Shown piece after piece: positions 5,188-36,296 of a stretch of DNA of 64,000 bases (position 1 is the first letter of the stretch; every line of letters begins with the position of its first letter). The DNA comes from Deltaproteobacteria bacterium. Its GTDB lineage: Bacteria; Desulfobacterota; Binatia; DP-6. The notes under the pieces are model-generated. The model was not told the DNA's origin. It searched no databases and saw nothing but the letters and a program-made list of their open reading frames with translations. The position numbers were made by a program, and so were the translations under genes. The stretch spans positions 1,931 through 65,930 of the forward strand of contig VBKJ01000129.1 in NCBI GenBank assembly GCA_005879795.1, given 5' to 3'.

Positions 5188-6203
5188 CGCGCCGCCGCCA
5201 GCGCGTCGGCGATCTCGCGCGGCACGTGGTCGCGCACCGCCTTGGCCGCCACCTTGACCGCGTTCGCGACGGCGCGCGCGCCCGAGCGCCCGCGGCACTT
5301 GATGAAGACGTGCTCGAAGCCCAGGATCGGCGAGCCGCCGTACTGCGTGTAGTCGGTGAGCGCCCGCGCGCGCTCGCTGCCGCGCGAGAGGAGGCGGAGG
5401 CCGAGCCGCCACGCCACCCGCCGTTCGCCGGCCCGGCCGGTGACGTCGTAGAGCACCTCGGAGACGCCCTCGATGAGCTTCAAGGCGACGTTGCCGAGCA
5501 GGCCCTCGCACACGATCACGTCGGCGCGCCCACGCACCAGGTCGTTGCCCTCGACGTTGCCGACGAAGTTGACCACCGGGAGCTGGCGCAGGCGGCGGTG
5601 CGCTTCGACCAGCACCTCGCCTCCCTTCATCTCCTCGCTCCCCATGTTCATGTTGAGGAGGCCGATCGCGGGGCTCGCGACCTTGGAGACGCGGCGCGCG
5701 TAGACGCTCCCCATGAGCGCGAAGTGCACCAGCTCCTCCGCCTCGCACCGCACCGTGGCGCCCACGTCGAGGAGGAGCGCCAGCGGGTCCTGGCCGCCGT
5801 GCTCGCGCTGGCGCGGGTAGACGCTCGCCAGCGCCGCGCGCCGGACGCCCCGCAGGAGGCGGAAGTGCCTGGCGCAGGCGAGCACGCAGGCGCCGGTGTT
5901 GCCCGCCGAGACGAGGGCCTGGGCCCGCCCCTCGGCGACGGCGCGCACGCCCACCACCAGCGAGGCGTCGCGCCGCTTGACCGCCTGGCGCGGCTCATCG
6001 GCCATGCCGATCGCGTCGGTCGCGTGCAGGATGGCGATGTGCTCGGGGTTGTAGGAGACCCCCTCGAGCACGCTCTGGATGCGGCGCTCGTCGCCCACCA
6101 GCAGGCACTCGATGTCGGTCGCGAGCGAGACCTGGGCGACGCCCTTCACGACCTCGTCCGGCGCGTGGTCGCCGCCCATGGCGTCGACGGCGATGGTGGG
6201 CAC
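5184..6203 (-). CDS. plsX: phosphate acyltransferase PlsX
   Basis: Full-length match to PlsX (MPTIAVDAMGGDHAPDEVVKG...). Confidence 0.9.
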   Translation of the reverse strand: MPTIAVDAMGGDHAPDEVVKGVAQVSLATDIECLLVGDERRIQSVLEGVSYNPEHIAILHATDAIGMADEPRQAVKRRDASLVVGVRAVAEGRAQALVSAGNTGACVLACARHFRLLRGVRRAALASVYPRQREHGGQDPLALLLDVGATVRCEAEELVHFALMGSVYARRVSKVASPAIGLLNMNMGSEEMKGGEVLVEAHRRLRQLPVVNFVGNVEGNDLVRGRADVIVCEGLLGNVALKLIEGVSEVLYDVTGRAGERRVAWRLGLRLLSRGSERARALTDYTQYGGSPILGFEHVFIKCRGRSGARAVANAVKVAAKAVRDHVPREIADALAAAR

Positions 6204-27228: not shown

Positions 27229-27257
27229 CATTGACACAAGCGCGCCTTTCGGGTTAG
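27229..27257 (+). promoter_or_regulatory. candidate sigma70 promoter of the riboswitch operon
   Basis: TTGACA, then a 17-nt spacer, then TTAGCT, ~30 nt upstream of the riboswitch P1. Confidence 0.35.
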
Positions 27258-27284
27258 CTCCGCTCCGAGAGAAACGACAAAACA

Positions 27285-27400
27285 TTGCCTTATCCAGAGT
27301 GGCTGAGGGCCCGGCCCGGCGACGCCACAGCAACCGGTCCTGAAACGGACGCTGGTGCTAATTCCGACGCTGCCCGCGCGGGCGGCGAAAGATAAGGTTC
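27285..27400 (+). ncRNA. SAM-I (S-box) riboswitch aptamer
   Basis: P1 CUUAUC...GAUAAG; conserved GAGGGcccGGCCCggcGAcGCCacaGCAACC, GGUGCUAAUUCC and GAAAGAUAAGG blocks in canonical order. Confidence 0.9.
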
Positions 27401-27410
27401 GCACGCTGGT

Positions 27411-27446
27411 GAGCCCCTCTTCCTGCTGGAGAGGGGCTTTTTTATT
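27411..27446 (+). terminator. intrinsic terminator (riboswitch expression platform)
   Basis: GAGCCCCUCUUCC-ugcugg-AGAGGGGCU hairpin followed by UUUUUUAUU, 5 nt before the first ATG. Confidence 0.85.
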
Positions 27447-27450
27447 GCGC

Positions 27451-28167
27451 ATGTCGACGACGAGCGAAGAAAGGATTTCCCGCGGGCGCGTCCTCGTGAT
27501 CGGCGTCGGCGGCCTCGGTGCGCCCGCCGCGACGGCGCTCGCCGCCGCGGGCGTGGGGACGGTCGGGCTCATCGATCCCGACACGGTCGAGGTCTCGAAC
27601 CTCCACCGCCAGCCGCTCTACACGAGCGCGGACGTCGGCCGGGCGAAGGTCGAGGTCGCGGCCGAGCGGCTCGGCGCGCTCGCGCCGGCGCTCCGCGTCG
27701 AGACGTGGCGCGCGCGCTTCGGCCCGGCGGACGCCCATCTGCTGCGCGGCTTCGACGTCGTCCTCGACGGCACGGACACCATCGCCGCCAAGTTCGTCGT
27801 GAACGACGCCGCGGTGGCGGCGGGCGTGCCGCTCGTCCACGCGGGCGTGCTCGGCTTCCGCGCGCAGCTCCTGACCGTGCTGCCGGGACGAAGCGCGTGC
27901 TACCGCTGCGTCTTCGAGGAGGCGCCGCCGGCGGGCGATGTGCCGTCCTGCCAGGAGGCCGGCGTGCTCGGGCCGGTCGCCGCGCTCGCGGGCGCGCTCG
28001 AGGCGGCCGAGGCGATCCGCCTCCTCGCCGGCGAGCCCCCCGCCTGGGCGAACGCGCTCCTCGCCATCGACACGCAGGCGGGGAGCTGGCGCACCGTGCC
28101 GGTCGCTCCGAGTCCGCGCTGCCCGGCGTGCGTGCCCCGCGCCGCCGAAAGGAGTCACGCCCCATGA
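27451..28167 (+). CDS. E1-like adenylyltransferase (MoeB/ThiF family), N-terminally short
   Basis: VLVIGVGGLGAPAATALAAAGVG nucleotide loop; CYRC...CPAC zinc motif; lacks the usual N-terminal RYSRQ helix. Confidence 0.8.
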   Translation: MSTTSEERISRGRVLVIGVGGLGAPAATALAAAGVGTVGLIDPDTVEVSNLHRQPLYTSADVGRAKVEVAAERLGALAPALRVETWRARFGPADAHLLRGFDVVLDGTDTIAAKFVVNDAAVAAGVPLVHAGVLGFRAQLLTVLPGRSACYRCVFEEAPPAGDVPSCQEAGVLGPVAALAGALEAAEAIRLLAGEPPAWANALLAIDTQAGSWRTVPVAPSPRCPACVPRAAERSHAP

Positions 28168-29417
28168 GCTACGTGAAGGGTCTCCGCTGCCGCGAGTGCG
28201 GCGCCGAGACGCCGATCGCGCCGTTGCACGTGTGCGAGACGTGCTTCGGCCCGTTCGAGGTCCAGTACGACTACGCCGCCATCCGCCGCGCGCTGACCCG
28301 CGAGAAGATCGCCGCCCGCCCGCGCAACCTCTGGCGCTACCGCGAGCTCCTGCCGATCGAGGGCGAGCCGCGCGTCGGGCTCCACTCGGGCATGACGCCG
28401 CTGGTGCGCGCGGACCGGCTGGCCGCCGTGCTCGGCGTGAAGGAGCTCTGGGTCAAGGACGACTCGGTCAACCACCCGACCTTCTCCTACAAGGACCGAG
28501 TCGTCTCGGTCGCGATCTCGAAGGCGATCGAGTTCGGCTTCGAGACCGTGTCGTGCGCCTCGACCGGCAACCTCGCCAACTCCGTCTCGGCGCACGCGGC
28601 GCGCGCCGCCCTCGCCTGCTACATCTTCATCCCCGACGACCTCGAGCAGGGCAAGGTGATCGGGTCCACCATCTACGGCCCGCGCACCATCGCCGTGCGC
28701 GGCACCTACGACGACGTGAACCGGCTGTGCAGCGAGGTGGCGGACAAGTACGGCTGGGCCTTCGTCAACATCAACGTGCGTCCGTACTACACGGAGGGCG
28801 CCAAGACCTACGGCTTCGAGATCGCGGAGCAGCTCGGCTGGCGGCTCCCGAGGCACATCGTGGTCCCGACCGCGGGCGGCACGATCCTGCCCAAGGTCGC
28901 CAAGGCGTTCCGCGAGCTGCGCGACCTCGGCCTGGTCGAGGGCGATTTCAAGATCTACACGGCGCAGGCGGCGGGCTGCGCCCCCGTCGTGCACGCGCTC
29001 CACAAGGGCGCGGAGCTCATCGCCCCCGTGAAGCCGCAGACGATCGCCAAGTCCATCGCCATCGGCAACCCGGCCGACGGCTTCTACGTGCTCAAGGCCG
29101 TGCGCGAGTCGGGCGGCTGGGGCGAAGCGGTGACCGACGAGGAGATCGTGGCCGGCATCCGGCTCCTCGCCCGCACCGAGGGGATCTTCACCGAGCCCGC
29201 GGGCGGCACGACGGTCGCGGTCACCAAGAAGCTGATCGAACAGGGGAGGATCCCCCGTGATGAGTCGATCGTCGTGAGCATCACGGGCAACGGCTACAAG
29301 ACGCTCGAGGCGGTGCTCGACACGGTCGAGCAGCCGTTCCGCATCCCGGCCCGCCTCGCCGACTTCGACGAGCTGCACGCTCGCCTGAACGCCGCCCGCG
29401 CGGCGAGCGCCGTCTGA
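28164..29417 (+). CDS. threonine-synthase-like PLP enzyme (MetM-like candidate homocysteine synthase) with N-terminal zinc ribbon
   Basis: N-terminal CRECG...CETC; PLP lysine in FSYKDR; GGAG RBS; ATG overlaps the upstream stop (ATGA). Confidence 0.85.
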   Translation: MSYVKGLRCRECGAETPIAPLHVCETCFGPFEVQYDYAAIRRALTREKIAARPRNLWRYRELLPIEGEPRVGLHSGMTPLVRADRLAAVLGVKELWVKDDSVNHPTFSYKDRVVSVAISKAIEFGFETVSCASTGNLANSVSAHAARAALACYIFIPDDLEQGKVIGSTIYGPRTIAVRGTYDDVNRLCSEVADKYGWAFVNINVRPYYTEGAKTYGFEIAEQLGWRLPRHIVVPTAGGTILPKVAKAFRELRDLGLVEGDFKIYTAQAAGCAPVVHALHKGAELIAPVKPQTIAKSIAIGNPADGFYVLKAVRESGGWGEAVTDEEIVAGIRLLARTEGIFTEPAGGTTVAVTKKLIEQGRIPRDESIVVSITGNGYKTLEAVLDTVEQPFRIPARLADFDELHARLNAARAASAV

Positions 29418-29445
29418 CTAGCAACGGGAAGGAGGAACCGTCATC

Positions 29446-29721
29446 ATGGTCCAGGTCAAGGTACCAACGCCGCTCCGCAAGTACACGGGGGGCGCCGGGG
29501 GGATCGAGGCGCAGGGGGCGACGGTGGCCGCGCTCGTGGACGATCTCGAGCGGCGCTACCCGGGGCTGAAGGAGCGCATCTGTGACGAGTCGGGACAGGT
29601 GCGGCGCTTCGTGAACATCTTCGTCAACGGCGAGGACATCCGCTTCCTCGCGCACCTCGACACGCCCCTCAAGGCGGGGGACGAGCTGTCGATCGTCCCG
29701 GCGATCGCCGGAGGCCGCTAG
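29446..29721 (+). CDS. MoaD/ThiS/CysO-like sulfur-carrier protein ending in Gly-Gly-Arg
   Basis: 91 aa with a beta-grasp pattern; C-terminus ...SIVPAIAGGR. Confidence 0.7.
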   Translation: MVQVKVPTPLRKYTGGAGGIEAQGATVAALVDDLERRYPGLKERICDESGQVRRFVNIFVNGEDIRFLAHLDTPLKAGDELSIVPAIAGGR

Positions 29722-29734
29722 CCGCGGCCCTCCT

Positions 29735-30721
29735 GTGCTCTCCGCGCGCGCCGTCCTTGCCCGTCCGACCTCGCCCGCCGCGGGGCCGCTCGCCGTGCCC
29801 TCCGCGCTCCAGCTGGTCGGCAACACGCCGCTGGTCGAGATCCGGCGCGCGCGGGACGGCGTGGCGCCGGGGGTGCGCATCCTCGGCAAGCTCGAGGGCT
29901 TCAACCCCGGCGGCTCGGTGAAGGACCGCCCCGCCCTCAAGATGATCGAGGACGGGCTCGCGCGCGGGCGGCTCGTGCCCGGGAAGACGATCCTCGACTC
30001 CACCTCGGGCAACACCGGCATCGCGCTCGCCATGGTGGGCGCCGCGCTCGGCTACCCGGTCGAGCTGGTGATGCCGGGCAACGTGAGCAAGGAGCGCAAG
30101 CAGGTGGTGGCCGCCTTCGGCGCCAAGGCGATCTTCTCGGACCCGCTCGAGGGCTCCGACGGGGCGATCCGCCTCTGCCGTCAGATACTGGCCGAGAACC
30201 CCGACCGCTACTTCAAGCCCGACCAGTACAACAACGAGGCGAACTCGCTCGCCCACTACGAGACCACGGGCCCCGAGATCTGGCGCCAGACCGCCGGCGC
30301 CATCACGCACTTCGTCGCCACCATCGGCACCGGCGGGACGATCATGGGGACGGGGCGCCATTTGAAGGAGCAGAACCGGAGCGTCCAGGTGATCGCCGCC
30401 GAGCCCGCCGACGCCTTCCACGGCATCGAGGGGCTCAAACACATGGCGTCCTCGATCGTACCCGGCATCTATCACGAGGAGGCGCTCGACCGGAAGCTCG
30501 GGATCGACACCGAGGACGCCTACAACATGGTCTACCGCCTCGGCCGCGAGGAGGGCCTGCTGCTCGGGCAGTCGAGCGGCGCGGCGCACGTGGCAGCGCT
30601 CGAGGTGGCGCGCGCACTCCGCGAGGGGACGGTGGTCGTCCTCTACCCCGACTTCGGCGACCGCTACCTCTCGACCAACCTGTGGGTCGGCTGGCAGAAG
30701 CTGGGAGGGACGACGCCATGA
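29735..30721 (+). CDS. cysM: cysteine synthase B-like PLP enzyme (CysM/CysK family)
   Basis: PLP lysine in GGSVKDR; GTGGT loop; full-length match. Confidence 0.85.
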   Translation: MLSARAVLARPTSPAAGPLAVPSALQLVGNTPLVEIRRARDGVAPGVRILGKLEGFNPGGSVKDRPALKMIEDGLARGRLVPGKTILDSTSGNTGIALAMVGAALGYPVELVMPGNVSKERKQVVAAFGAKAIFSDPLEGSDGAIRLCRQILAENPDRYFKPDQYNNEANSLAHYETTGPEIWRQTAGAITHFVATIGTGGTIMGTGRHLKEQNRSVQVIAAEPADAFHGIEGLKHMASSIVPGIYHEEALDRKLGIDTEDAYNMVYRLGREEGLLLGQSSGAAHVAALEVARALREGTVVVLYPDFGDRYLSTNLWVGWQKLGGTTP

Positions 30722-31002
30722 AGCGGCCGCCGCCACGCCTCGCCAAGGCGGAGCCCGCGCCGGTCGCGCGCGGGAAGTTCTACCTCACCTACCCGAAGAA
30801 GCTCGTGAAGGAGCCGCTCATCTACCAGATGAGCCGGAAGTTCGACCTGGTGTTCAACGTGCGCAGCGCGAGCGTCAGCGAGGAGATCGGCATCATCGCC
30901 CTCGAGCTCGACGGCCGGCAGGGGGAGATCGACGCCGCCGTCGAGTGGTTCCGCGCCCAGGGCGTCACCGTCGAGCCGATCGAGAAGAACGTCATCGAGT
31001 GA
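30718..31002 (+). CDS. stand-alone NIL-domain protein (MetN C-terminal-like ferredoxin fold)
   Basis: 94 aa; ...LIYQMSRKFDLVFNVRSASVSEEIGIIALELDG... is the pattern of the NIL domain; ATG overlaps the cysM stop. Confidence 0.55.
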   Translation: MKRPPPRLAKAEPAPVARGKFYLTYPKKLVKEPLIYQMSRKFDLVFNVRSASVSEEIGIIALELDGRQGEIDAAVEWFRAQGVTVEPIEKNVIE

Positions 31003-31004
31003 TG

Positions 31005-31628
31005 CTGACCGAGGCGCAGATCGAGCGCTACAGCCGCCAGATCGTGCTGCCCGAGGTGGGCGGGGGCGGGCAGGAGCGGCTGCTCGCGGCGCGCGTCGTG
31101 CTGGCCGGTGACGGGCCGGCGGCGGAGGCGGCCGCCACCTTCCTCGGCCGCGCGGGTGTGGGCGCGCTGCACCTCCAGGCGAGCGCCGGCGCGCTGTCCG
31201 AGCTGTCGCCCGACTGCCAGGTGAGCCGCCACGCGGGCCTCGAGGAAGCGCCTGCGGCCGGCGTCGTCGTCGACCTGACGCCAGACACCGCGTTGAGCGC
31301 CGTGCTCGCCCGCCGGGCACAGGCGGGGCGGCCGTGCGTGCTCGGCGCCCTCAGCGGAGCGATGATCTTCGTCTTGACGCTGGTCGGGCGGCCGTGCGTC
31401 GCCTGCCTCGGCTCGGAGCGCCTGGAAACGCGCCGCGCCGCCCGCGGGCCGCTCGCCGCGCCGGCGCTGCTCGGGCTCGGTGCGCTGGCGGCGAACGAGG
31501 CGCTTCGCGTCCTGCTCCTGCCTCCGGCCCGCGGCCGCCTGGTCAGCCTCGGGCTCGAGAGCGCCATCGTGAGCGCGGTCGAGGTGAGGTCCACCGCCGG
31601 CTGCGCCTTCTGCGGCGGCCGCCCGTGA
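31005..31628 (+). CDS. E1-like paralog with RYSRQI N-terminus but a degenerate nucleotide-binding loop
   Basis: MLTEAQIERYSRQIVLP...; Gly-rich loop replaced by VVLAGDGPAAEAA; CVAC...CAFC zinc motif retained. Confidence 0.6.
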   Translation: MTEAQIERYSRQIVLPEVGGGGQERLLAARVVLAGDGPAAEAAATFLGRAGVGALHLQASAGALSELSPDCQVSRHAGLEEAPAAGVVVDLTPDTALSAVLARRAQAGRPCVLGALSGAMIFVLTLVGRPCVACLGSERLETRRAARGPLAAPALLGLGALAANEALRVLLLPPARGRLVSLGLESAIVSAVEVRSTAGCAFCGGRP

Positions 31629-32806
31629 CCCACCCCGCGCACTGGAAGCCCGAGCTCGCCGCGCGCGGGGTGCGCCTCGACGCGAGCGCGGCGCGCCTGG
31701 GCGCCGGTGACACGGCGCGCCCCCTCGAGCTCGCCCTGCTCGACGACGTCCGCGTCGGCGTCCCGATCGACGAGCGCTCCCCATTCGTCCTCTTCGCCGA
31801 CAGCGCCCGGCACTTCCTCGTGCGCCGCGATCCGGGCGGGGCCGAGAGCGCGCGCGTCGAGGTGCGGCCCATCCCGCGGCCCGGCTTCTACGAGCGCCGC
31901 ACGAGCCGCGGCACGCCCATGGCGCGGATCGCCACCGTGCGCGGCAGCCACCTGCTCGTGAACCCGAGCAGCGCGTGCGGCTTCAGCGTGCGCGGCACGC
32001 CGTGCCGCTTCTGTGTCGAGGGTGCGCGCGTCTCCGCCGAGCGCGACGCGGTCCCGGTGGCCGACGTCCTCGAGGTCGTGCGCGCCGCGTTCGACGAGGG
32101 CGCGTGCGAGCTGGTGTACTTCAACACCAGCCACTTCGAGAGCGAGGACGGCGGCATCGCCTTCCTCGCCCCCTACATCGAGGCGGTGCGCCGGCACTTC
32201 GACACGCTGATCGCGACCCAGGTCCATCCGCCCCGCGCGACCCACTGGATCGACGAGACCTACGCCATGGGGGTCGACGCGCTCAGCTACAACCTCGAGA
32301 TCTTCGACCCCGACGTGTTGAACCGCCACTGCATCGGGCGCGCACGCTACATCGGGCGCGAGCGCTACCTCGAGTCCCTGGCGCACGCCGCCAGGGTGTT
32401 CCCGAGCGGCACGGTGTGGAGCGACCTGGTGCTCGGCCTCGAGCCCGCGGACTCGACGATCGCCGGCATCGACGCGCTGGTCGAGATGGGGGTGGTGCCG
32501 GTGGCCGCCCTCCTGCGGGGCGAGCACCCGCTGCCCGCGCCGGCCGACGTGGCGCCCCTGCTCGCGCACCTCTACCGCGCCGTCAAGCGCCGCGGCATCA
32601 ACATGGGCTGGGTGCGCGACCTGGCGCTCGGCATCACGCCCCTCGAGGCGCGTCACTTCGCCGGCGACGGCGCCCGCCTCGCGGTGACCGTCCAGCAGCT
32701 CACCCGCTCGCGCCTGGGCGCGCTCGCGGCGCGCGGCCTCGCCCGCTTCCGCCGCCGCCTGCGCGTGCGCAAGGTGAGCGAGTCGTTCGACGCCGCGCAC
32801 CTGTAG
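31625..32806 (+). CDS. putative Fe-S (radical-SAM-like?) TIM-barrel enzyme with an atypical Cx8Cx2C motif
   Basis: SSACGFSVRGTPCRFCVEG near the N-terminus of a ~390-aa alpha/beta protein; GTG overlaps the upstream stop; family not recognised. Confidence 0.45.
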   Translation: MTHPAHWKPELAARGVRLDASAARLGAGDTARPLELALLDDVRVGVPIDERSPFVLFADSARHFLVRRDPGGAESARVEVRPIPRPGFYERRTSRGTPMARIATVRGSHLLVNPSSACGFSVRGTPCRFCVEGARVSAERDAVPVADVLEVVRAAFDEGACELVYFNTSHFESEDGGIAFLAPYIEAVRRHFDTLIATQVHPPRATHWIDETYAMGVDALSYNLEIFDPDVLNRHCIGRARYIGRERYLESLAHAARVFPSGTVWSDLVLGLEPADSTIAGIDALVEMGVVPVAALLRGEHPLPAPADVAPLLAHLYRAVKRRGINMGWVRDLALGITPLEARHFAGDGARLAVTVQQLTRSRLGALAARGLARFRRRLRVRKVSESFDAAHL

Positions 32807-34281
32807 TGGCTCGCCCGCAAGAGCGGCAGCACGCGCCGGCCGACGTCGTCATCGACACCCGGCCGCTGTGGCGCATCCTCGCCGAGCGCACCTACCGGCC
32901 GGTCGTGCTGGCGATGGGGCTCCTCGGCTTCCTCGCGCTACGCGCCATGGCGCCGCCCGCCGGTCTCTCGGCCGCCGGGCAGAGCGCGCTCGCCATCTTC
33001 GCCCTCTGCCTCGTCTACTGGGTGACGAACGTCATCCCGCTCATGGTGACGAGCCTGCTCGCCATGGTGCTCCTGCCGACCACGGGTGCGCTGCCCGCCC
33101 GGGACACCTACGCGCTCTTCGGCAACGAGGCGGTCTTCTTCATCCTGGGCGCCTTCATCCTCGCCGCCTCGCTCATGAAGTGCGGGCTCTCGACCCGGAT
33201 CGCGATCGCCGTGCTGCGCCGCTTCGGCCACACGCCGCGCGCGCTCCTCCTCTCGCTCTTCCTGATGAACGCCTTCATGGCGTTCTTCATGTCGGAGCAC
33301 GCGGTCGCCGCCATGACCTTCCCGATCACGGTCGAGATCGCGCGCGTGCTCCGCCTGCCGCGCCAGCAGAGCAACTACGGGCGCGCCCTCTTCCTCGCCA
33401 TGGCGTGGGGCACGCAGATCGGCGGCATCGCGACCCTCCTCGGCGGCGGACGGGCGCCGCTCGCGCTCGGCATGCTGCGCGACTTCAACGGCCAGACCTA
33501 CAGCTTCGCCCAGTGGACGCTCGCCGCCTGGCCGCTGGTGGCGGTGCTGCTGGCGGTGGGCTGGCAGGTGATCGTGCGCTTCTTCCCGATCGACATCACC
33601 TCCGTGCGCGACGCCGACGTCGTCATCGCGGAGAAGGCGCTCCGCCTGGGACGGCCCTCGGGCAAGGAGAAGTCGATCGCCCTGGTGATGCTCGGCACCC
33701 TCGCCGCCTGGATCGTCGGGGGCGAGGAGTTCGGGCTCGCCACCATCGCGCTCGGCGCGGTGGTGCTCCTCTTCGTCCTGGACCTCCTCAGCTGGCGCGA
33801 CATCGAGCAGTACGTGAACTGGGGCGTGCTCCTCATGTACGGCGGCGCGATCGCGCTCGGCTCGGCCCTCAACCGCTCGGGGGCCTCGACCTTCATCGCG
33901 AGCGTCACCGTGAGCCGCTGGGCGCACAGCCCGCTGGCCGTCGTCGCCATGATCTCCGCCCTGGGCATCCTGCTGACCGAAGCGATGAGCCACTCGGCGG
34001 TGGTCGCGCTGCTCATGCCGGTGGCCCTCGGCATCGCGGCGCAGTTCGGGATCGATCCGCGCGTCATGGCGCCGGCGGTGGCGCTGCCCGCGGGGCTCGC
34101 CTTCACGCTGCCCGTCGGCACGCCCGGGAACGCGATCGCGTACTCGTCGGGCTATCTCCGCCTGCGCGACATGCTCGTGCCGGGCTCGGTCATGGTGGTG
34201 ATCGCGTGGGCAGCGTTCAACCTGGTGGCGCGGTACTACTGGCCGCTGATCGGGCTCACGCTCGCCGCGCCGCGGCCGTGA
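32806..34281 (+). CDS. DASS/SLC13-family anion:Na+ symporter (sulfate/thiosulfate/dicarboxylate-type)
   Basis: Polytopic protein with duplicated halves and conserved SNT-like motifs (TNVIPLMVTS, TLPVGTPGNAIAY); start uncertain (GTG 32806 or ATG ~32913). Confidence 0.75.
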   Translation: MARPQERQHAPADVVIDTRPLWRILAERTYRPVVLAMGLLGFLALRAMAPPAGLSAAGQSALAIFALCLVYWVTNVIPLMVTSLLAMVLLPTTGALPARDTYALFGNEAVFFILGAFILAASLMKCGLSTRIAIAVLRRFGHTPRALLLSLFLMNAFMAFFMSEHAVAAMTFPITVEIARVLRLPRQQSNYGRALFLAMAWGTQIGGIATLLGGGRAPLALGMLRDFNGQTYSFAQWTLAAWPLVAVLLAVGWQVIVRFFPIDITSVRDADVVIAEKALRLGRPSGKEKSIALVMLGTLAAWIVGGEEFGLATIALGAVVLLFVLDLLSWRDIEQYVNWGVLLMYGGAIALGSALNRSGASTFIASVTVSRWAHSPLAVVAMISALGILLTEAMSHSAVVALLMPVALGIAAQFGIDPRVMAPAVALPAGLAFTLPVGTPGNAIAYSSGYLRLRDMLVPGSVMVVIAWAAFNLVARYYWPLIGLTLAAPRP

Positions 34282-34367: not shown

Positions 34368-34604
34368 ATGAGCACGAGAGCGAAGCTGTTCTGGAACGGA
34401 CGCAGCCAGGCGGTCAGGCTGCCGAAGGAGTTCCGCTTCAGCGGCGACGAGGTCCTCATCCGCCGGGCGAACGACAAGGTGATCCTCGAGCCCGTTCACA
34501 AGGGCTGGGACGATACCTTCTGGGCCTGCTTCGGTAAGCTCTCGGACGACGTCGAGCGGACCGAGTTCGTGGCGAGCGAGCGCCGCGAGGATGCCTTCCC
34601 CTGA
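34368..34604 (+). CDS. vapB: VapB antitoxin (AbrB/SpoVT-MazE fold)
   Basis: 78 aa with a swapped-hairpin N-terminus (AKLFWNGRSQAVRLPKEFRF); overlaps vapC. Confidence 0.8.
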   Translation: MSTRAKLFWNGRSQAVRLPKEFRFSGDEVLIRRANDKVILEPVHKGWDDTFWACFGKLSDDVERTEFVASERREDAFP

Positions 34605-35002
34605 GGTACCTGCTCGACACCAACATCTGCATCTACGCCCTGAAGCGCCGGCCGCCCGAGGTTCTGAGTCGGCTCGAGCGCCTCACGCCCGCCGACGTCG
34701 CCGTGAGCGCCGTGACCGCGGCCGAGCTCAGGTTCGGGGCGAGCAAGAGCTCCGCTCCGGAGCGGAATCATCGCGTGCTCGACGTCTTCCTCGGGCACAT
34801 CAACGTGCTCGCCTTCGACGTCGATGCCGCGACGAGCTATGGACGGGTGCGCGCCCATCTCGAGCGACGGGGGCGTCCGATCGGCGCGATGGACACGCTG
34901 ATCGCCGCCCACGCGCTCTCCCTCGGGGCGACGCTCGTCTCGAACAACGTCCGTGAGTTCAAACGGGTCCCGAGATTGCGGTGCGAGAACTGGGTCAGTT
35001 AG
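34601..35002 (+). CDS. vapC: VapC PIN-domain toxin (apparent CTG start)
   Basis: [13 protein letters not shown]...TAAEL...[13 protein letters not shown] are the PIN acidic residues; no in-frame ATG/GTG/TTG upstream of the catalytic Asp; CTG at 34601 overlaps the vapB TGA. Confidence 0.7.
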
Positions 35003-35036: not shown

Positions 35037-36296
35037 ATGCCCGATCTGATCCCTCCCCACGGCGGCCTGACCGAGCCCGTCTCCCTGACCGTCCCCGCGC
35101 ACGAGGTGGAGCGGTTCCGGGCGGAGGCGGCGCGCCTCGCCAGGGTGCCGGTCTCCGACTCCGACCTCTCGAGCGTCTATCGCTTCGGCGACGGCGGGCT
35201 CTCCCCGCTCACCGGCCCGATGGACGCGGCCACCTACCAGCGCGTCCTCGACGAGTGCGTGATCGAGCGCGGCGGCCGGCTCTACGCCTGGACGATCCCG
35301 ATCGCGCTGCCCGTGACGGCGGAGCTGGCGCGGAAGCTCGGGCGCGGAGAGACCGTCGCGCTGACCAACAGCGCCGGCGCCGTGGTCGCGACCCTCGCCA
35401 TCAGCGACGTCTACCCGTGGGACAAGGCGAAGTACCTGCGCAGCGTCTACGGCACCGAGCGCACCGACCATCCCGGCGCCGACATGGTGCTCAAGGGCGA
35501 CGCCGACAGGACGCACCTCCTCGGCGGCCGGCTGCGCGTGCTCCCGCAGCCGACGCACCCCGCGTTCGGGAGGTACGTGCTCACGCCGCGCGAGGTGCGC
35601 CGCCTGCTCGCCGCCAGGGGCTGGGACCGCGTGGTCGCCTTCCAGACCCGCAATCCGCTCCACCGCGCGCACGAGTATGCGCTCGTCTACGGGCTCGAGA
35701 CCCTGCTCCGGGCCGGGCACGACGCGGGCGCGGCTCTCAACCCCCTCATCGGCGAGACCAAGGGCGACGACGTGCACGCCGACGTGCGCATGCGGACCTA
35801 CGAGGCGCTCATCGAGACGCGCGCCCTCGGCGAGGGCGACAGCGATCCCACGCTCTGGGGGCCGCGCGGCGAGTCGGTGCCCGACCGGGTCATCCTCCTC
35901 GGCCTCGACATCAAGATGTTCTACGCCGGCCCGAAGGAGGCGGTGATGCACGGCATATACCGGCAGAACTTCGGCTTCACCGACCTGGTCGTCGGCCGCA
36001 AGCACGCGGATGCGCCCTTCCACGACGGCACGCCCATCTGGGGCGACTTCGACGCGCAGGAGGTCTTCGGCTCGCTCCGGGGCGACCTCGGGATCAAGCC
36101 CGTCAAGGTCGGCTTCGCCGCCTACTACGAGTCGGTCGGGCGCGTCGACCTGATGGACAACCATCCCGGCGAGAAGCCGCTCACCATCTCCGGCAAGGAC
36201 GTGCGCAGGGCGCTCCTCGAGGGCCGCGAGGTGGACCCGCGCATCATGCGGCCGAGCACGGCGCGGATCCTCGCGGCGGCGATGACCGGGGGCTGA
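35037..36296 (+). CDS. sat: sulfate adenylyltransferase (ATP sulfurylase)
   Basis: [11 protein letters not shown] and GRKHAD motifs; full-length match. Confidence 0.9.

Follow-up and report, generated by a model that had tools for sequence, protein, structure and literature searches.

Can a single sulfur-carrier protein, placed under one S-adenosylmethionine (SAM) switch, serve the synthesis of both homocysteine and cysteine? This question is raised by a locus of eight genes (g1-g8) in a 64,000-nucleotide stretch of contig VBKJ01000129.1 (assembly GCA_005879795.1; referred to here as the window), which originates from an uncultured soil bacterium of the Binatia and has a G+C content of 73.5%. 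All eight genes lie on the plus strand behind a single SAM-I riboswitch. An initial annotation had suggested that they may form a complete module, of unusual composition, for the incorporation of thiocarboxylate sulfur into methionine and cysteine. Our analysis confirmed the observation and supported part of the interpretation: the locus probably represents a protein-thiocarboxylate sulfur-assimilation operon of the Binatia, in which one CysO-type carrier would serve two pyridoxal phosphate (PLP)-dependent enzymes, one forming homocysteine and the other cysteine, under repression by SAM.

The first gene, g1 (27451-28167), encodes a predicted active adenylyltransferase of the ThiF/MoeB type, designated E1a (Pfam ThiF, 235 bits). 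It shares an ATGA overlap with g2 (28164-29417), which encodes a ThrC homologue of probable MetM type (PALP, PRK08197). After a gap of 28 nucleotides follows g3 (29446-29721), encoding a CysO-family sulfur-carrier protein (ThiS, 67.6 bits), and after a further gap of 13 nucleotides g4 (29735-30721), encoding a CysM-type cysteine synthase, also a PLP enzyme (PALP, cysKM). A second ATGA overlap joins g4 to g5 (30718-31002), the gene of a stand-alone NIL-domain protein of 94 amino acids (PF09383). The next gene, g6 (31002-31628), overlaps g5 by 1 nucleotide and encodes a degenerate ThiF-like paralogue with a partial ThiF match, designated E1b; an alternative GTG start at 30999 would produce a 4-nucleotide GTGA overlap with g5. 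The operon is completed by g7 (31625-32806; GTGA overlap with g6), encoding an enzyme with a radical-SAM fold and a CX8CX2C motif (NF045502), and g8 (32806-34281; 1-nucleotide overlap with g7), encoding an anion transporter of the DASS family (TIGR00785). Five of the seven junctions are therefore overlaps of 1 or 4 nucleotides (ATGA, ATGA, TGATG, GTGA, TAGTG). No convincing terminator was found inside g1-g8, where the scan gave only three or four weak hits, with short stems (5-7 bp) and poor T tails; two of these overlap each other on the minus strand, and none resembles the terminator of the leader. The eight genes are presumably co-transcribed. The earlier picture of one riboswitch followed by eight co-oriented, translationally coupled genes was upheld by the Rfam match and by the reading of the junctions, and all the domain names given with it hold in Pfam and NCBIfam profile searches.

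The riboswitch aptamer (RF00162; 27287-27398, plus strand) was identified by cmscan with 80.8 bits (E = 1.9e-17; gathering threshold 44.4), covers positions 1-108 of the 108 in the model, and is the only Rfam family found in the whole window. A terminator scan and sequence reading placed an intrinsic terminator at 27411-27448 on the same strand, composed of a 12-bp G+C-rich stem and a TTTTTTATT run; it ends 3 nucleotides before the ATG of g1. Because this hairpin and its T tail directly follow the aptamer, just before g1, the leader is predicted to be a transcription-terminating OFF switch. Homologous aptamers precede E1a in 30 related loci (loci and proteins of the comparison described below are numbered with the prefixes L and P), and a hairpin with a run of at least five T residues follows the aptamer in 22 of the 31 riboswitch-bearing loci. 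Such a T run is absent from the other nine (L005, L007-L012, L015 and L047; leaders at ~5650-5870), in which control may be translational or may involve a different terminator. There is a precedent for cysteine and sulfate genes being controlled by a SAM riboswitch, namely the S-box regulon of Bacillus.

The product of g2 matches the NCBIfam model PRK08197, named 'threonine synthase' (324 bits; cutoff 303), and contains a PALP domain. It also bears an extra N-terminal Cys4 ribbon, which is lacking in the solved ThrC structures (the alignments begin at residue 52-58). In tblastn searches of annotated records, g2 was found to be 52.9% identical to a ThrC-like protein of Nonomuraea gerenzanensis that has the same ribbon. 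In that genome a SAM riboswitch (68.7 bits), the ThrC-like gene and the gene of a 91-amino-acid carrier, 51% identical to g3, stand in a row; tblastn with the eight window proteins, extended 6 kb to either side of this locus, gave only the g2 and g3 homologues. The g2 protein scored 379-387 bits against its Nonomuraea homologue and at most 213 bits against any solved ThrC. The 53% identity to a riboswitch-linked actinobacterial homologue and the shared Cys4 ribbon support the earlier proposal that g2 is of the MetM type, that is, a predicted carrier-thiocarboxylate-dependent homocysteine synthase. A ThrC-like gene of a haloarchaeal plasmid, 38% identical to g2, was also considered and rejected, as no carrier gene lies nearby.

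The g3 carrier, initially named MoaD/ThiS-like, was assigned to the CysO family: its closest solved relatives are CysO of Amycolatopsis (4n6e_B, E = 5e-24) and CysO of Mycobacterium tuberculosis (3dwg_C, E = 1e-22). All its orthologues share the ending ...SIVPAIAGG, after which come 0-4 variable residues; the window carrier has one and ends in ...AIAGG-R. A match to the NCBIfam model SAMP1 was also recorded (64.5 bits; cutoff 60). The g4 protein matches TIGR01136 (cysKM, 353 bits; cutoff 344), and its best match in the PDB is CysM of Salmonella/Escherichia coli (246 bits), slightly above CysM of M. tuberculosis (212 bits). It is predicted to be a CysM-type synthase, with O-phosphoserine or O-acetylserine as the candidate substrate. 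The NIL domain of g5 was recognised with 57.8 bits (gathering threshold 24), and homologue searches with this protein returned only orthologues from the same type of cluster. An apparent NIL::E1b fusion (P0500; L067, 1336-2238) was discarded as a likely sequencing-error artefact; the same contig has a split PALP gene.

For the comparison between genomes, homologues of g7 were aligned and the resulting profile was scanned over one genome per species, which gave 54 loci, almost all from metagenome-assembled genomes of Candidatus Binatia; gene order was then compared by tblastn and iterated hidden Markov model searches with the eight window proteins. The order E1a, ThrC homologue, carrier, CysM, NIL, E1b, radical-SAM enzyme, DASS recurs in ~40 species-level Binatia genomes. 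The constant core is E1a-carrier-CysM-E1b-radical-SAM, usually followed by DASS and ATP sulfurylase (Sat). Since the same order is kept in ~40 species-representative genomes, the arrangement is not a chance juxtaposition and represents a real functional unit. The wider synteny is also preserved, with QueT, Rce1-like, DJ-1 and BamD genes upstream and a sigma/anti-sigma pair and PolA downstream, which identifies the cluster as an old, vertically inherited part of Binatia genomes. The unusual composition noted at the outset is thus no peculiarity of one contig, the cluster being a conserved locus with defined variants.

The variants were tabulated for the 40 loci, including that of the window, that cover the region upstream of E1a. 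The ThrC homologue, NIL protein and riboswitch were present together in 26 loci (27 with L047, whose NIL gene was recognised by tblastn; 26 by hmmsearch). Five loci (four without L047) carry the ThrC homologue and the riboswitch and no NIL gene, one (L036) has the ThrC homologue alone, and eight have none of the three. A riboswitch accordingly accompanies 31 of the 32 ThrC-positive loci and none of the eight ThrC-negative ones (Fisher p = 1.2e-7, uncorrected for phylogeny); in the latter, no riboswitch was detected by Rfam at the gathering threshold. The NIL gene occurs only in ThrC-positive loci (27, counting L047); it is absent from five of them and from all eight ThrC-negative loci. Because the riboswitch and NIL co-vary with the ThrC homologue, the latter appears to be a methionine-branch addition and not a housekeeping threonine synthase, and the variants support a methionine branch added onto a cysteine system of the CysO/CysM type.

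The initial annotation had also pointed to two complementary E1 paralogues, and this was borne out by an alignment of 40 E1a and 44 E1b orthologues with ThiF of E. coli. E1a (238 amino acids) covers positions 14-237 of the ThiF profile, aligns to residues 23-244 of E. coli ThiF, and has no rhodanese domain. E1b (208 amino acids) scores over positions 1-49 of the profile only; in phmmer it aligns to ThiF residues 5-58 and 85-245, residues 59-84 being skipped. The RYxRQ arginine-finger segment is absent from all 40 E1a sequences, also when the full stop-to-stop frame is considered, whereas in E1b the finger arginine is kept in 40 of 44 sequences and the second arginine in all 44. The nucleotide-binding residues show the reverse pattern. 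The Gly-rich loop, the SNLxRQ motif with the ATP-binding arginine, the ATP-binding lysine and the aspartate of TDN are all kept in 40/40 E1a proteins; in E1b the loop is degenerate, SNLxRQ is deleted (42/44), the lysine is lost (43/44) and the aspartate is replaced (40/44). The zinc cysteines are retained in 37-40 of the 40 E1a sequences, and in E1b the first CxxC pair is retained in 36/44 and the two cysteines of the second pair in 34 and 28 of 44. The loop cysteine is present in 39/40 E1a sequences and is not conserved in E1b. The window E1b itself retains the arginine-finger helix (RYSRQ) and the CxxC zinc motifs and has lost the ATP-binding loop.

In ThiF and MoeB, the arginines R11 and R14, respectively, act in trans on the ATP of the neighbouring subunit, and in the yeast Tcd1-Tcd2 heterodimer a degenerate ThiF-family subunit donates the arginine finger (PMC13139853). 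Because E1a lacks the finger segment while E1b keeps the finger without the ATP-binding residues, an asymmetric pair is suggested, and we lean, by a modest degree, towards E1a and E1b forming a heterodimer. E1b may also act as an adaptor, instead of or besides this role. In the Binatia loci its gene always lies directly upstream of the radical-SAM gene, and searches with E1b gave only orthologues from the same type of cluster.

The g7 protein had been labelled an atypical Fe-S-like enzyme with a Cx8Cx2C TIM barrel. The motif and the barrel stand; the label is corrected to a genuine radical-SAM fold. The canonical CX3CX2C motif is lacking, and the CX8CX2C motif (C118, C127 and C130), a recognised variant spacing, is conserved in homologues, as is C236; there is no second cysteine cluster. 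The protein matches NF045502 (variant_rSAM; 152.5 bits, cutoff 125), with PF04055 at 25.5 bits, below the cutoff of 29.5. It is composed of an N-terminal β-rich domain, a partial TIM-barrel radical-SAM fold and a basic C-terminal helix, and fold searches placed it squarely among radical-SAM enzymes. The candidate motifs DGG, S221/N223/E225 and G271/E273 are conserved as well. On these grounds the alternative of a non-SAM Fe-S TIM-barrel enzyme was rejected; the use of SAM itself is predicted. The family is small, comprising 169 proteins at E ≤1e-30 and 951 at E ≤1e-10 when its profile was run over 1.84 billion representative proteins. The C-terminal helix (residues ~355-393, ...LARFRRRLRVRKVSESFD...) is strongly basic and is kept in distant homologues, although model confidence is low in this part; it may anchor the protein to a membrane or to a partner.

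Outside the Binatia, the radical-SAM gene follows immediately after a Prok-JAB (JAMM) gene, which it overlaps by 4-8 nucleotides. In L058 (1-3527) the order is TusA, CysO-like carrier, E1b-like protein (203 amino acids, ThiF profile positions 1-49 only), JAMM, radical-SAM enzyme and PP-loop ATPase, and 4-nucleotide overlaps couple the genes from the carrier through the radical-SAM enzyme. L059 (964-3196) has a carrier, JAMM, the radical-SAM enzyme and a His_Phos_1 phosphatase-family gene, L062 (3-1762), L064 and L065 have JAMM and the radical-SAM enzyme, and in L057 (2-3007) ThiF and carrier genes precede a JAMM::radical-SAM single open reading frame (P0265, 575 amino acids) and a PHP-domain gene. 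L063 (5000-9272) contains ThrC-like, carrier, CysM-like, JAMM and radical-SAM genes. A cluster with ThrC-like, carrier, CysM and radical-SAM genes thus also exists in a JAMM-bearing lineage. In L061 (2677-6808), the order is Rrf2, Sat, radical-SAM enzyme and DASS, and no carrier gene is present within its 6.8-kb contig. The carriers of the non-Binatia loci all fall into one CysO-like subfamily; they share 51-66% identity with g3 and have 1-5 residues after GG. The partner consumer enzymes vary (CysM, ThrC-like, PP-loop ATPase or none) and the radical-SAM enzyme is constant.

These neighbourhoods bear on the function of g7, the least firmly placed component of the operon. In several lineages the family is associated with CysO-type carriers, its adjacent partners (JAMM and E1-like proteins) grip the Gly-Gly tail of ubiquitin-like proteins, and the consumer enzymes vary while the radical-SAM enzyme does not. 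For these three reasons the carrier itself is the most likely target of g7, which would take part in its charging or maturation. A role in charging specifically can be put forward only tentatively. The recurring linkage to Sat and DASS indicates sulfate-derived sulfur. A fuller version, held with slightly less confidence again, would have g7 act on the C-terminal tail of CysO-type carriers, its substrate being presented by the E1b adaptor (by the JAMM domain elsewhere), most plausibly charging the adenylated carrier with sulfur that originates from sulfate; this would replace the rhodanese, TusA, cysteine desulfurase or sulfite reductase hand-off of all characterised thiocarboxylate systems.

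Several further observations were made on relatives of g7. One protein (P0315, 881 amino acids) is an apparent radical-SAM::DASS fusion; in the window the two genes overlap by 1 nucleotide. The distant homologues of Nitrospinota (L050-L054) sit among unrelated genes (MurC-like, HAD, PfkB) and gave no functional lead. Two distant relatives with a CX10CX2C motif share a domain of ~130 amino acids, N-terminal in P0300 (residues 1-150) and C-terminal in P0298 (residues 430-561), with the motif ...FFYK.S....SRDR[YF]SYGA...GFDP.

The transporter g8 scored 267 bits against TIGR00785 (cutoff 198.6) and 207 bits against Na_sulph_symp. In the PDB it resembles VcINDY (137 bits) and SLC13A1 (98 bits), matches that do not distinguish between substrates; the putative cargo is sulfate or a different inorganic sulfur anion. 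The gene of ATP sulfurylase lies further downstream on the plus strand (35037-36296; PUA_2 and ATP-sulfurylase Pfam matches). Sat follows DASS by 49-152 nucleotides in ten loci (49-62 nucleotides in the closest relatives) and lies directly after the radical-SAM gene in five loci without DASS. In the window, a vapB gene (34368-34604, plus strand; MazE_antitoxin Pfam match) and a PIN/vapC frame (34601-35002, plus strand; PIN Pfam match) stand between g8 and Sat. This pair is an insertion that lies outside the pathway, and ancestrally the unit extends into Sat. The vapC frame opens with CTG at 34601, so that it overlaps the vapB stop as CTGA instead of the usual ATGA. Initiation at its first canonical start (GTG, 34703) would cost the PIN domain its N-terminal part; translation may begin at a rare start codon, or the toxin may be inactivated. 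In L040 (12697-15146), L019 (12688-13194) and L046 (12674-13222), a Usp gene follows DASS, and in L040 a sulfatase gene follows Usp. These neighbours again connect the locus with the scavenging of sulfate.

The preferred model of the operon is as follows. At low SAM the riboswitch terminator would not form and g1-g8 would be transcribed. E1a would adenylate the Gly-Gly end of the carrier, most likely as an asymmetric dimer in which E1b supplies the arginine-finger helix in trans, and the resulting acyl-adenylate would be converted to a thiocarboxylate. CysM (g4) would use this carrier thiocarboxylate with O-phospho- or O-acetylserine to form cysteine, and the MetM-type g2 would use it with O-phosphohomoserine to form homocysteine. 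The NIL protein (g5), found only alongside g2, could be an accessory protein or sensor of the methionine branch. DASS (g8) and the downstream ATP sulfurylase would form the sulfate-supply side. The radical-SAM enzyme would charge or mature the carrier, probably at the C-terminal tail presented by E1b, a position held in other lineages by the JAMM peptidase.

Other explanations of the gene set were weighed against this model. The operon could serve cysteine synthesis only, in the manner of CysO and CysM, with g2 being an ordinary threonine synthase or another γ-replacement enzyme placed there for regulation; the control by SAM would then be explained by transsulfuration, with cysteine as the precursor of methionine. 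The above-cutoff PRK08197 match and the fact that the nearest solved structures to g2 are true ThrC enzymes speak for this explanation. However, MetM is routinely misannotated as threonine synthase (GapMind), and g2 is far nearer, in both bit score and possession of the Cys4 ribbon, to the riboswitch-linked actinobacterial homologue than to the ribbon-less solved ThrC enzymes. In addition, the riboswitch occurs only where g2 is present and is missing from the eight CysM-only loci, and we regard a cysteine-only operon as improbable. Still less credence can be given to the carrier being mainly a ubiquitin-like modifier, of the sampylation or TtuB style, activated by a heterodimeric E1 like those of eukaryotes, with the metabolic enzymes in a secondary role. 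The SAMP1 match, the asymmetry of the E1 pair and the JAMM 'deconjugase' genes of related clusters are compatible with such a function, but the carrier is closest to CysO and is flanked by two PLP enzymes of the sulfhydrylase type, there is no E2 or E3, and the genes are controlled by a SAM riboswitch and adjoin sulfate genes.

A different alternative concerns g7 alone, which could be a third consumer of the thiocarboxylate, performing a C-H thiolation like LipA or BioB with sulfur taken from the carrier and not from an auxiliary cluster, and yielding a thiolated metabolite or cofactor, with E1b as the docking adaptor. We consider this unlikely. Generic handling of the carrier fits better with companions that differ by lineage around a constant radical-SAM enzyme, no conserved candidate substrate-pathway genes were found nearby, and the association with Sat and DASS in L061, where no carrier gene is nearby, would be left unexplained.

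Several observations weigh against the operon model outlined above. There is no JAMM peptidase, although the carrier ends in GG-R and the pathways of M. tuberculosis and Streptomyces need Mec. The JAMM motif (HxH...SxxD) was found in no open reading frame of the window, all of which were scanned, and in no recurrent gene of the Binatia loci, as the initial annotation had stated for this operon; such a peptidase may be encoded elsewhere in the genome. Rhodanese, TusA and cysteine desulfurase genes are likewise missing from the cluster, and no adenosine 5'-phosphosulfate (APS) or sulfite reductase was found among the ~38 window open reading frames scanned with Pfam, which are part of the total. 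The operon is therefore not demonstrably complete: it lacks a peptidase for trimming of the carrier (GG-R) or release of cysteine and homocysteine adducts, rhodanese, TusA, cysteine desulfurase and APS/sulfite reductase. The arginine finger was reported to be non-essential in ThiF and MoeB (PMC13139853), so E1a might act alone. L036 (4500-6900) has the ThrC homologue and no SAM riboswitch, even at E values up to 0.1. The g4 protein scored 377.5 bits against TIGR01138 (cysM), below the equivalog cutoff of 394.2, and the similarity of g8 is highest to dicarboxylate transporters. The JAB::radical-SAM (P0265) and radical-SAM::DASS (P0315) 'fusions' are weak evidence, since the genes overlap and both could be frameshift artefacts. 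Finally, co-transcription is something that we infer, and all functions of the Binatia proteins are deduced from sequence.

Core metabolism has only recently been extended by protein-thiocarboxylate routes, to cysteine in M. tuberculosis and to homocysteine in Wolinella and Streptomyces, and their annotation is still poor. The locus suggests that, throughout a widespread phylum of uncultured soil bacteria, both amino acids depend on a single carrier controlled by one SAM switch; if this is true, false calls of 'auxotrophy' and 'threonine synthase' in Binatia genomes would be corrected. The gene set also provides defined proteins for the question of how sulfur is delivered to a carrier without a rhodanese or cysteine desulfurase in the cluster. 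The E1a/E1b pair could serve as a small model for how eukaryotic heterodimeric E1s could arise. Beside this split E1, the radical-SAM family, found in several lineages alongside CysO-type carriers, JAMM peptidases, ATP sulfurylase and DASS, is a conserved component for study.

Literature searches found no paper on this gene set, in agreement with the initial view that the combination is undescribed, and its parts can be compared with known systems. The layout of riboswitch, ThrC homologue and carrier is that of MetM/MetO of Streptomyces albulus, which requires MoeZ and the JAMM peptidase Mec (Hasebe et al. 2024, as reported in 10.1101/2024.10.14.618325 and PMC12172450). In these accounts the Streptomyces system shares with the window the SAM-I riboswitch and a ThrC homologue with a Cys4 ribbon, followed by a CysO-like carrier of 91 amino acids; the members of the equivalent Nonomuraea pair are 53% and 51% identical to g2 and g3. 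As described there, the actinobacterial unit consists of two genes, with MoeZ (an E1-rhodanese fusion) and Mec encoded elsewhere, whereas in the window the ThrC homologue comes after an E1 gene, and CysM, NIL, E1b, the radical-SAM enzyme and DASS lie downstream of the same carrier.

The second half of the gene set resembles CysO-CysM-Mec of M. tuberculosis (PDB 3dwg, 3dki) and classes 4c/4d of Iyer, Burroughs and Aravind 2006 (PMC1779556), in which, as here, a CysO-family carrier gene lies directly upstream of a CysM-type enzyme. Compared to the mycobacterial system, the window operon is without JAMM, its E1 is without rhodanese and its carrier extends one residue past GG, and it adds E1b, the radical-SAM enzyme and DASS. 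The same survey of ubiquitin-like proteins, E1 and JAB describes carrier/E1/JAB clusters with cysteine synthase, or with sulfate-assimilation genes and SirA; it mentions no ThrC homologue and no radical-SAM partner (the term occurs 0 times). Its class 4e and the HcyS/HcyF/HcyD/MetY system of Wolinella succinogenes (PMC1779556; Krishnamoorthy and Begley 2011, as reported in PMC5764234) are, as far as these accounts go, similar to the window operon in having an E1 without rhodanese, a C-terminal extension of the carrier, a link to sulfate uptake and ATP sulfurylase, and homocysteine as the product. In these descriptions, however, Wolinella forms homocysteine by the O-acetylhomoserine sulfhydrylase MetY and not by a ThrC homologue, and 3'-phosphoadenosine 5'-phosphosulfate or sulfite reductase, SirA and JAMM are present, unlike in the operon studied here; in the latter the radical-SAM enzyme and E1b fill that part of the cluster.

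The pattern of E1a and E1b is like that of yeast Tcd1-Tcd2 (PMC13139853) and of the eukaryotic SAE1-SAE2 and APPBP1-UBA3, in which one subunit keeps all ATP/Mg residues and a degenerate partner supplies the N-terminal arginine finger. Unlike these pairs, the Binatia proteins, which form a putative dimer, come from a pair of small bacterial genes that belong to a sulfur-carrier operon, and the finger segment of the active subunit is wholly lost. CX8CX2C groups are listed as uncharacterised in RadicalSAM.org (megaclusters 4-6-x, PMC9477430). These groups, NF045502 and the distant TIGR04043 (MSMEG_0568 of Nit1C clusters) share with g7 the cysteine spacing and the partial TIM-barrel fold, whereas the g7 clade is small and is specifically linked to CysO-type carriers, JAMM, degenerate E1, Sat and DASS. 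What is new in the Binatia locus is that the known MetM/MetO and CysO/CysM types are combined and conserved across the phylum, the split E1 and the carrier-linked radical-SAM enzyme being its most interesting parts.

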